DNA from: Escherichia coli
GTDB taxonomy: Bacteria > Pseudomonadota > Gammaproteobacteria > Enterobacterales > Enterobacteriaceae
NCBI RefSeq assembly: GCF_011045215.1
Contig: NZ_CP049201.1
Direction: 5' to 3' (one strand)
DNA length: 64,000 bases
Every line of letters begins with the position of its first letter. Position 1 is the first letter of the stretch. Shown here piece by piece: positions 11,701 to 14,700 of the stretch. The position numbers are program-made.

Positions 11701-14700
11701 TTTTTATAGGGTGTTAATCTGGTATTTAATTAAAAGACGGAGTTATTTATACTGACATATCAAATAAATAATTTTTAACGACTTTTCTATTTGGCTGATT
11801 GTTTTGCGTTCTTTTTATAAGGTGTTTTATTTTTAAAGGTTTTTTGATGAGATTACATAGTCTTAAAATAAAAGGATTTAAACGTATCCAAACTGCAAGA
11901 GATAATATTTGGTGATACCACGTTTCTCATTGGTGCTAATAATGCCGGTAAAAGTTCTGTTCTGAAGGCCGTTGAATGGCTGCTTTCAGATAAAAAGAAG
12001 ATGGATATTGACTTTTTTTATTGTGAATCTGATGAATCACGTGAAAATAAAATAGCAACTGAGTCAATTGTACTCGAGGCTGAATTCAGAAATGTACCGG
12101 AAGAGGCATTGCAATGGAGAGGTTTTAGGGGGAGGATATTTGAATATAATGCTGGAAATAGTGGGGAAACGGGAAAGTCTCTGATTTACAGGAAAACATA
12201 TGAACCGGGGAATGATGTTGTTATTGAATTGAAATCTTTTTCAAGAAAATTGAATACACGATTTGAAACCGCAGTCAGAGCATCTGACTTGGTAGAAGCT
12301 GGTGCTGATGCCGAAATCATCACTGAGTATTTTCCAGATCAAGCTAAAAGATTTAATGCAGCTGACAAAGAAAAATTAAAACTCATTGATGAATTATGGG
12401 ATATTTCTGATGATGAAGAAGTTTGGGATAAAAACCCGGGGGGAATTGCAGGTGTTGTGTTATCCCGATTACCTGCTTTTCTATTAATACCAGCAGAATC
12501 AGCTTCTCATGAAATTGACACAAAAGCGGGAGCTTTGCAGAAAACGCTGAATGAACTATTCAAAGATGTTCGTGGCAATTCAGAAAATTATAGAAAGGCC
12601 CAGGAGTCTCTGAATGCGCTTGCGAAGGAATTAGATCCTGCAGATGAAACGTCAGAATTTGGTGTGATGATGGGAGAACTTAACAGTGTATTAAGCGGAG
12701 TTTTTCCAGAGTCAAAGATATATGCTACGGCTGATTTATCTGATCCTGATAATGTTCTCCTACCTTCATTTTCGGTTGAAATGTCGAGTAACATTAAAAC
12801 ATGTGTATCGAATCAAGGAACCGGAATGATTCGAGCAGCTGTATTTGGATTGTTGAGATTTCGGCAGCAATGGCTGAGAAAAAAAGGTAAGGATGATGCT
12901 GCTACCAGAAGTCTTATTATTGGATTTGAAGAACCAGAAATTTATTTACACCCTAGTGCAGCAAACCAGATGAGAGATTTGATTTATGAATTATCAGATG
13001 GACAGTCACAAATAATAGCGACAACACATTCACCTTATTTGATTGATTTGTCGAGAAAACCCCGACAGGTACTTAACCGATTCCATTATGATAATTCACA
13101 TACGACAGTCTACCCGCTCTCAGTGACAGAGAAATTTCTGGCCTTGCAGGATAATGATAAAGATCAGATAAAAATGCTGATTAAGCTGGATGATCATGTA
13201 TCAAGGATCTTTTTTACCCGAAAAGTTGTTGTTGTCGAGGGAGATACAGAGGAAGTCATTATCAAAGAAGCTATCCGCAGAATGCCAAAAGCAATGCGAA
13301 ATAAGTTGCTTGCATCAACAGAGCTGGTTAAAGCACGTGGCAAGGCTGCGATTATCGGCCTGGTGAAGTATCTTAGCGCGCTGGATGTTGATTTTTTTGT
13401 TATCCATGATCGTGATGGCGGAACTCCCGGTGCGGAGATCTTTAATGCGCCGATTGCTGCTGCTGTTGGGGATGCCAGCAAAGTTATCATGCTGGAAGAG
13501 TGTATTGAGGATCTGCTGGGGTACCCAGCTCCAAGTGGTGAAAAACCGTTTAAGGCGTATCAGGAAGCACAGCGCTGGGGAGATAACTGGAATGACGTGC
13601 CTGAACCATTAAGGAGAATACTGACTAGAGCTTTTTCCCCATTTATCGATTTGGCTGAATGAGCAAAAGGGAAAAACTCTGATAAGTAGAGAGTTGAAGA
13701 TGAGCGCTTGGTGCATTGCCAGCACTCTTTTGATTGAAGATCTTTATTTCAGTGAAAGTGGTGCCTGGTTTGCCTTGCCTAAACGTATCATAAAGTCGGC
13801 ACACCATACCTGATGCTGCTATGCGATGTTCCTGCTGGATGTGATGTCGGAAAGAAAGGCGGAATATTACTGCAATAAGGTAGCAGTCCATATCAGACGC
13901 GGGCCTTTCATGATGAACAGGAGAATAACTTGAGTTGCCGGGAATTGCCGCGGCCATACGACATAATCGGGCCAGAGGAAAACACCAGATGGCCTCAATA
14001 TCTGACATTGTCAGAGACCTTTCGCGGCTCGGCTGGACGGATGAACGCATTGGCACTGAGCGGGGCAAGTGCTAAGGCTGAAACAGATTAGCGGGCTGAC
14101 GGGCCTGTTTCAGGAAGAGGATTTCAGCCCGGCATAGACGCTTCGCTGATACTGTTATTGTTATTTCAGTGAGTTGATGTTTTGAGCAGGAAAAAGAGTA
14201 CCCTGGAAGTTGTGGAAGACAAGGTTGCACAGAAACTGGAGGCTGCAGGTTACTGGCGCAGAGCTTCTGCCCGCTGGTTATTTGTTATGGGCAATTTTGA
14301 ATGTACAGAAGCACAAGGGGAGTGGTTGTTGTTACGCAGGAATTATTGCCTGACGCAGATATCGTCCCCGCCGCTACCTGAAAAGCTGGATATCAGCGAA
14401 GTGGTAAAAGCTGCAGATGCCACGCTGAGGCGAATGGGGATTGCCAGCCCGTCCGGAGAGGTATTCAGAAAAGGTATATTGACCTGTAGATATTCAGATA
14501 ACAGGTATTGATGATGAATAAAGGAAGTATATCAATGACATGGCAGCTTTTATGCGATGAACATGGTTTTACCCGGGAACATTACAGTGAACTGAAGAAA
14601 TTCAGTCCGGAGGTATTACATGAAATTATTGTTGAAATGGCCTGCTGCCATCCATCAACCAGTGTATTGCTCAGGAATAAGTGGCTGACACCGCCGGAGG

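Follow-up and report, generated by a model that had tools for sequence, protein, structure and literature searches.

A probable relic of ibrA and ibrB in the spacer between OLD-family and PerC-family genes of Escherichia coli

In a 64,000-nucleotide stretch of Escherichia coli DNA (contig NZ_CP049201.1, assembly GCF_011045215.1; hereafter the window), 519 bp separate the stop codon of an OLD-family open reading frame (ORF; 13662, plus strand) from the earliest start codon of a PerC-family gene (TTG 14182, plus strand). The original prediction noted this spacer (13663-14181) and suggested that its content might be a non-coding RNA or, alternatively, a decayed gene. The second option was the right one: homology to intact loci, at both the DNA and the translated level, together with pseudogenes annotated automatically in a close relative, identifies a relic of ibrA and ibrB. 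On the strength of these sequence comparisons, we consider it very probable that the spacer derives from the ibrA-ibrB operon, part of the "IbrAB genetic island" of E. coli, and no longer has a function. The two genes are reportedly activators of prophage eib genes, described in strain ECOR-9, where they lie on this island. Positions 13742-14149 form a composite pseudogene, in which an internal piece of ibrA is fused to the 3' end of ibrB. Its parts are as follows.

13742..13943, plus strand: ibrA' relic, an internal piece of a phosphoadenosine phosphosulfate (PAPS) reductase/DUF3440 gene, approximately codons 288-361 of 410
13943..13944, no strand: junction of a 552-bp deletion that took the ibrA 3' end and ibrB codons 1-140
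13944..14149, plus strand: 'ibrB relic, the final 72 codons (amino acids [aa] 141-212) of a ParB-like gene, supported by tblastx, by a multiple alignment and by an "IbrB-like" pseudogene call of the Prokaryotic Genome Annotation Pipeline (PGAP)

Results

Homology of the spacer to ibrA and ibrB

Our main reference is the TUM1881 locus, an example of the common arrangement, which carries on one strand a VasL-like gene, an OLD gene (type B), a hypothetical gene of 214 aa, ibrA (1.2 kb, with one strain-specific frameshift), ibrB (639 bp) and perC. IbrA residues are numbered from the frameshift-repaired, 410-aa IbrA of this locus, and positional comparisons were made in an alignment of the window with six loci. 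Using blastn, we found that 13742-13943 matches TUM1881 ibrA (locus positions 4001-4224) at 73% DNA identity and positions 4142-4364 of the locus in strain APEC20/16 (NZ_CP127297.1) at 92%. A further DNA comparison of this piece gave 82% to TUM1881 and again 92% to APEC20/16. Translated comparison with tblastx extends these matches to the protein level. Positions 13742-13897 translate as LYFSESGAWFALPKRIIKSAHHT, a stop, and then CCYAMFLLDVMSERKAEYYCNKVAVHIR, which is 69% identical to TUM1881 IbrA over 52 aa, and 13912-13950 carries on the homology in a different frame. The repaired IbrA contains the Pfam domains PAPS_reduct (PF01507) and DUF3440 (PF11922). The fragment itself matches DUF3440 with E = 4.5e-4 and 20.5 bits, under the 25-bit cut-off because it is so short.

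No intact frame is left in the ibrA piece. It has no start codon, an in-frame TGA replaces TGG at 13811-13813, and the 3' end is lost. Two deletions break the frame further, one of 10 bp at 13890/13891 and one of 11 bp at about 13910/13911; both are found in all relic loci and absent from APEC20/16. The N-terminal PP-loop/PAPS-reductase domain (aa ~20-240 of the intact protein) is gone from the window, where the OLD cassette stands in its place. Overall, about 18% of ibrA survives (74 of 410 codons).

The right-hand part of the relic belongs to ibrB. A blastn match to the TUM1881 locus covers 13944-15119 (locus positions 4777-5987) and starts in the last third of ibrB. In tblastx, 13944-14066 translates as IAAAIRHNRARGKHQMASISDIVRDLSRLGWTDERIGTERG and matches residues 141-181 of IbrB at 85% identity over 41 aa. 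Positions 14066-14149 encode the C-terminal 28 aa of IbrB, once more in a different frame and cut by a premature stop. DNA identity of the remnant to intact ibrB is 88-89%, and the ancestral TGA stop codon can still be recognized at 14147-14149. The lesions here are a frameshifting 13-bp deletion at 14066/14067 and a TGG to TAG change at 14135-14137, which within the alignment are confined to the window and its closest relative. Intact IbrB (212 aa) has a weak Pfam ParB_N match at aa 55-115, a region that lies inside the 552-bp deletion. What survives, 34% of the gene (72 of 212 codons), contains no uninterrupted frame. The two remnants meet at 13943/13944, with window position 13943 corresponding to position 4364 of the APEC20/16 locus and 13944 to position 4917. 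We looked for microhomology in the sequences at the breakpoints of this deletion and found none.

The closest match to the region is E. coli C5 (NZ_CP010122.1), which is 98% identical at the spacer and 99% identical over 11500-15200. In C5, PGAP annotates pseudogene fragments of a "phosphoadenosine phosphosulfate reductase" and an "IbrB-like domain-containing protein" (RG28_RS32560 and RG28_RS31975), with an "AAA family ATPase" (OLD) on one side of them and a "PerC family transcriptional regulator" on the other. C5 has the same relic with the same junctions. The window differs from it by an extra 7-bp deletion at 14157/14158 and by a frameshift in the upstream OLD gene.

Distribution and proposed history of the relic

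We surveyed 5,426 complete E. coli genomes by megablast with window positions 13600-14250 as the query. Although 1,966 records gave a match, in only 14 does a single location account for 80% or more of the query, and the undeleted arrangement is present in about 1,950 of the genomes. A probe spanning the internal junction (13943/13944) identified 13 genomes. A second probe, spanning the left junction between the OLD cassette and ibrA, identified 14, namely the same 13 and APEC20/16.

APEC20/16 shares the type A OLD cassette and the left junction into ibrA with the window, and the two are 97% identical up to 13943. Unlike the window, it lacks the 552-bp, 10-bp and 11-bp deletions, and its ibrB is near full length, with a frameshift and an internal stop. 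To the right of 13943/13944, identity between the two falls to 85%. A similar step is seen against loci of the enterotoxigenic E. coli (ETEC) type, with about 95% identity to the left of the junction and about 88-90% to the right. This break indicates that recombination probably took place, which would give a mosaic ancestry across the relic. In the ETEC-type relic loci, the final 72 ibrB codons are still in frame and carry no PGAP frameshift mark.

Homology between the window and the TUM1881 locus ends at 11446, the end of the VasL-like gene, and restarts at 13742; the interval corresponds to TUM1881 locus positions 144-4000. The OLD proteins in this interval, type A in the window and type B in TUM1881, are only 25% identical in aa sequence, while each matches the PADLOC "Old" model at about 1e-66. 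Because homology breaks off here and the proteins are so different, we attribute the interval to a cassette swap. As the initial step of decay, the AT-rich type A cassette would have replaced the segment from the end of the VasL-like gene to about codon 288 of ibrA. Lost in this exchange would have been the type B OLD gene, the hypothetical gene and about 860 bp (~70%) from the 5' end of ibrA, so that the remaining 3' third of ibrA had neither a start nor the catalytic PP-loop domain. The 552-bp deletion, occurring without microhomology, would then have joined the ibrA remnant to ibrB codon 141, at the cost of the ParB-like N-terminal domain. Finally, the 10-, 11- and 13-bp deletions and the TGA and TAG changes would have accumulated, and the 7-bp deletion would have arisen in the segment between ibrB and perC. 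The APEC20/16 intermediate suggests this order, from left junction to 552-bp deletion to small lesions.

In relatives, the neighborhood has also been struck by insertion sequences (IS). Isolate L2_E1649 has an IS66 element at precisely the position that corresponds to 13689/13690, and elements of the IS1, IS110 and IS66 types lie near the relic in others. The neighborhood of the relic is thus under general erosion.

Flanking genes and other features of the spacer

The remaining features around the relic are listed here.

11847..13662, plus strand: OLD-family (ATPase plus TOPRIM) nuclease gene of the "type A" cassette, with Pfam matches to AAA_15 and OLD-like_TOPRIM
13663..13741, plus strand: 79 bp that flank the OLD cassette on its 3' side and lack homology to ibrA and to the TUM1881 locus
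13643..14068, minus strand: 141-aa ORF with a TTG start, judged to be a spurious antisense frame of the ibrA' and 'ibrB relics
14150..14181, plus strand: ancestral intergenic segment between ibrB and perC, assigned from the alignment
14182..14511, plus strand: intact PerC-family regulator gene (Pfam PerC, 1.6e-32), starting at TTG 14182 or GTG 14212

The OLD-family ORF at 12001..13662 is real, but those bounds capture only the 3' portion of a gene that carries a frameshift and truly begins at 11847. C5 and APEC20/16 have intact genes of 604 aa, and alignment to them places a 1-bp insertion near position 11897 (GCAAGAG versus GCAGAG), 17 codons past ATG 11847, where it shifts the frame in the window. 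The Walker A motif (GANNAGKSS) is now out of frame, and the 553-aa ORF that opens at ATG 12001 does not include it. The frameshift reflects either a pseudogene or a sequencing error. The intact C5 allele matches PADLOC "Old" at 2.9e-66.

The 79-bp flank is contiguous with the OLD gene in 14 of the 14 genomes that have the left junction. It contains a weak hairpin and U-run at about 13702-13735, including a terminator-like pattern at 13710-13726 followed by CTTTTGATTG. These elements could be the OLD terminator, but they are no more stable than shuffled sequences: the hairpin z-score is -0.07 in the window and -0.07 to -1.1 over four lineages, and 13400-14400 holds one terminator-like site compared with 0.9 in shuffles. 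A T-A to C-G change seen in the alignment (GGTGC..GCACT versus GGCGC..GCGCT) looked compensatory for this hairpin. The minimum free energy (MFE) folds pair differently, however, and the hairpins are no more stable than shuffles, so we claim no validated terminator here.

On the other side of the relic, perC is intact. It is 99.3% identical to C5 perC with zero indels, compared with at least six disabling lesions in the 408 bp of the relic. The PGAP start in C5 is the in-frame GTG equivalent to 14212. In intact loci, ibrB and perC lie about 78 bp apart on the same strand. The 7-bp deletion at 14157/14158 falls within this intergenic segment and is found neither in C5 nor in the five other aligned loci.

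Possible coding, RNA or regulatory roles of the spacer

The 519-bp spacer has little room for a gene of its own, in line with the original description of a stretch of about 520 bp without a convincing ORF. The minus-strand, TTG-initiated frame is the sole ORF of at least 60 aa, and shorter ones of 35-53 aa occur on both strands. The spacer was also said to be richer in guanine plus cytosine (GC) than its surroundings. At 0.484, its GC content does exceed that of the OLD gene (0.401) and of the ORF after perC (0.407), but it is level with that of perC (0.488), agrees with that of ibrAB and ranks at the 56th percentile when all 519-bp segments of the window are compared (mean 0.462, standard deviation 0.061). 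The composition is therefore not unusual, and the contrast stems from the AT-rich OLD cassette.

Doubt about the minus-strand ORF, already voiced in the original prediction, proved justified. That it represents a real, possibly newly arisen, protein gene is scarcely credible to us, even though the frame is open at 141 aa in C5 and antisense frames of 100-128 aa are present in the segments examined from other relic loci. Long stop-free antisense frames are a frequent by-product of coding sequence, and this one lies antisense to the conserved ibrA and ibrB frames. It crosses the 13943/13944 junction and therefore cannot be older than the deletion. In the ETEC-type loci, the frame stops sooner, at 127-128 aa, and there is a 7-bp insertion in that region; the homologous frame in the TUM1881 locus is broken. 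Searches of Pfam and NCBIfam with the 141-aa product gave no match, the 3' end overlaps the OLD stop, and the start is a TTG. Additionally, a scan of both strands of 13400-14400 for sigma-70-like promoters returned none at threshold. The same scan bears on a peptide that might still be made from the leftover IbrB C-terminus, for example from a plus-strand ORF of 46 aa at 13935..14075 with a TTG start. In its favor, the last 72 codons remain in frame in ETEC-type relic loci, but the window and C5 carry the frameshifting 13-bp deletion and the premature TAG. The ParB-like N-terminal domain is lost, and neither a start codon nor a ribosome-binding context nor a promoter was found, so that an active product is barely conceivable.

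The original suggestion of a non-coding RNA found no support. As requested by that prediction, we scanned the spacer with covariance models: in a permissive Rfam 15 scan of 13000-15000, only chance-level matches appeared (the best ones with E = 2.5-8 and 12-20 bits versus gathering scores of 40-80), with the top one at E = 2.5 and every match at least 20 bits short of gathering. At the gathering threshold, the entire window gave nothing in the spacer and a single tRNA elsewhere. The MFE of the whole spacer showed no excess stability over shuffles, with z-scores of 0.06 (plus strand) and -0.24 (minus strand). Applied to five relic-bearing loci, which at 90% or greater identity give the test low power, RNAalifold showed no covariation: the covariation term was positive (+2.97), a single pair out of 145 was compensatory, and many pairs were broken. 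The points in favor of a structured RNA are weak, consisting of the terminator-like hairpin at 13710-13726 and the moderately GC-rich 'ibrB segment (0.558 over 13944-14149). Against them, the lineage-specific deletions of 7, 10, 11 and 13 bp would not be tolerable in a conserved RNA, and a formerly coding origin accounts for the entire sequence. We therefore regard a structured RNA as very improbable.

A regulatory role is compatible with a pseudogene origin, and is best considered for the right part of the relic (~14000-14211), which might have been kept as a promoter or 5' leader for perC. Beside an intact perC, the final ~200 bp of ibrB and the segment between the two genes persist in all 13 genomes that carry the internal deletion, as well as in the APEC20/16 intermediate, and the 552-bp deletion ended before this right-hand segment. 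However, the promoter scan of 13400-14400 was negative here as well, and the about 78-bp, same-strand gap between ibrB and perC suggests that perC may be cotranscribed from upstream. The segment has also taken the 13-bp deletion and the nonsense change in the window and C5 and, in the window only, the 7-bp deletion that lies 25 bp before the TTG; together these suggest weak constraint. We judge retention as a leader unlikely. The fuller version, in which ~13944-14211 was co-opted as the perC promoter or leader after loss of the ibrAB operon and the relic is held by selection, seems to us quite unlikely; if it were true, the relic would be maintained by selection and would not be neutral debris. 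An expressed de novo antisense gene created by the deletion is still less likely than a co-opted leader.

Genomic surroundings

The slot between the VasL-like gene and ibrA (11447-13741 in the window) is variable among these loci. It holds one or the other of the two OLD nucleases, one of them accompanied by the 214-aa hypothetical gene, and it looks like a defense-gene hotspot with cassette turnover. To its left, 10158-11522 in the window is one intact ORF of 454 aa with ImpA_N and VasL domains (type VI secretion). In C5 and APEC20/16, the same stretch is annotated as several pseudogene fragments. The ORF seems to be an orphan type VI secretion gene on the island, although no search was made for the rest of such a cluster.

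Downstream of perC and in the same orientation, 14508-16086 encodes a 206-aa protein with no Pfam match, an 82-aa protein with a sub-threshold likeness to DUF465 and a 211-aa helix-turn-helix protein. C5 has the same three genes behind perC. The only tRNA or Rfam gathering match in the window is a tRNA-Phe (GAA) at about 53780-53855 on the minus strand (53783-53855 in the Rfam scan). As the sole tRNA, it suggests that the region is a genomic island of the pheV/pheU tRNA-associated type.

Discussion

The closest known counterpart of the relic is the IbrAB genetic island, the report of which (Sandt, Hopper and Hill, J Bacteriol 2002) is cited as reference 174 of PMC8065619. The island has the same gene pair in the same one-strand neighborhood (ibrA, ibrB and a perC-family gene), and the parts that survive in the window retain 73-92% DNA identity. 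In contrast to the island, the pieces in the window are fused by a deletion and interrupted by stops and frameshifts, and both N-terminal domains, catalytic and DNA-binding, are lost. Judged in this way, the relic clearly derives from ibrA and ibrB, yet it fails as a member of either family on every functional count.

The intact genes also resemble parts of known defense systems. Through its PP-loop/PAPS-reductase domain, intact IbrA gives weak PADLOC matches to BrxP (4.9e-7) and DndC (5.6e-4), while IbrB gives no PADLOC match. The IbrA matches are short, and the part of ibrA responsible for them is absent from the window. With domain-level likeness in one protein and none in the other, we do not claim ibrAB as a defense system.

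Several points limit this reading. The order of the cassette swap and the 552-bp deletion depends on one intermediate genome, APEC20/16. That the relic has no function is a negative inference. In addition, every relic-bearing genome keeps the 3' end of ibrB together with the intergenic segment, which may reflect either selection on signals for perC or mere proximity to it. Nothing that we found contradicts an origin from ibrA and ibrB.

Taken together, these comparisons indicate that the relic most likely does nothing and is formerly coding DNA drifting to loss. At most, it would be passively transcribed as a stretch between OLD and perC. It is a case of ordinary gene decay, already annotated as a pseudogene in the public RefSeq genome of C5. 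For annotation, the spacer should be labeled as ibrA/ibrB pseudogene fragments, neither kept blank nor scanned for RNAs, and the 141-aa antisense ORF should receive no gene call. More broadly, the locus offers a small case in which a variable OLD-nuclease slot beside ibrAB changes its content through cassette replacement, to the detriment of the neighboring operon. Public genomes still show a succession of stages of its decay, and for an E. coli genomic island the whole picture is unsurprising.
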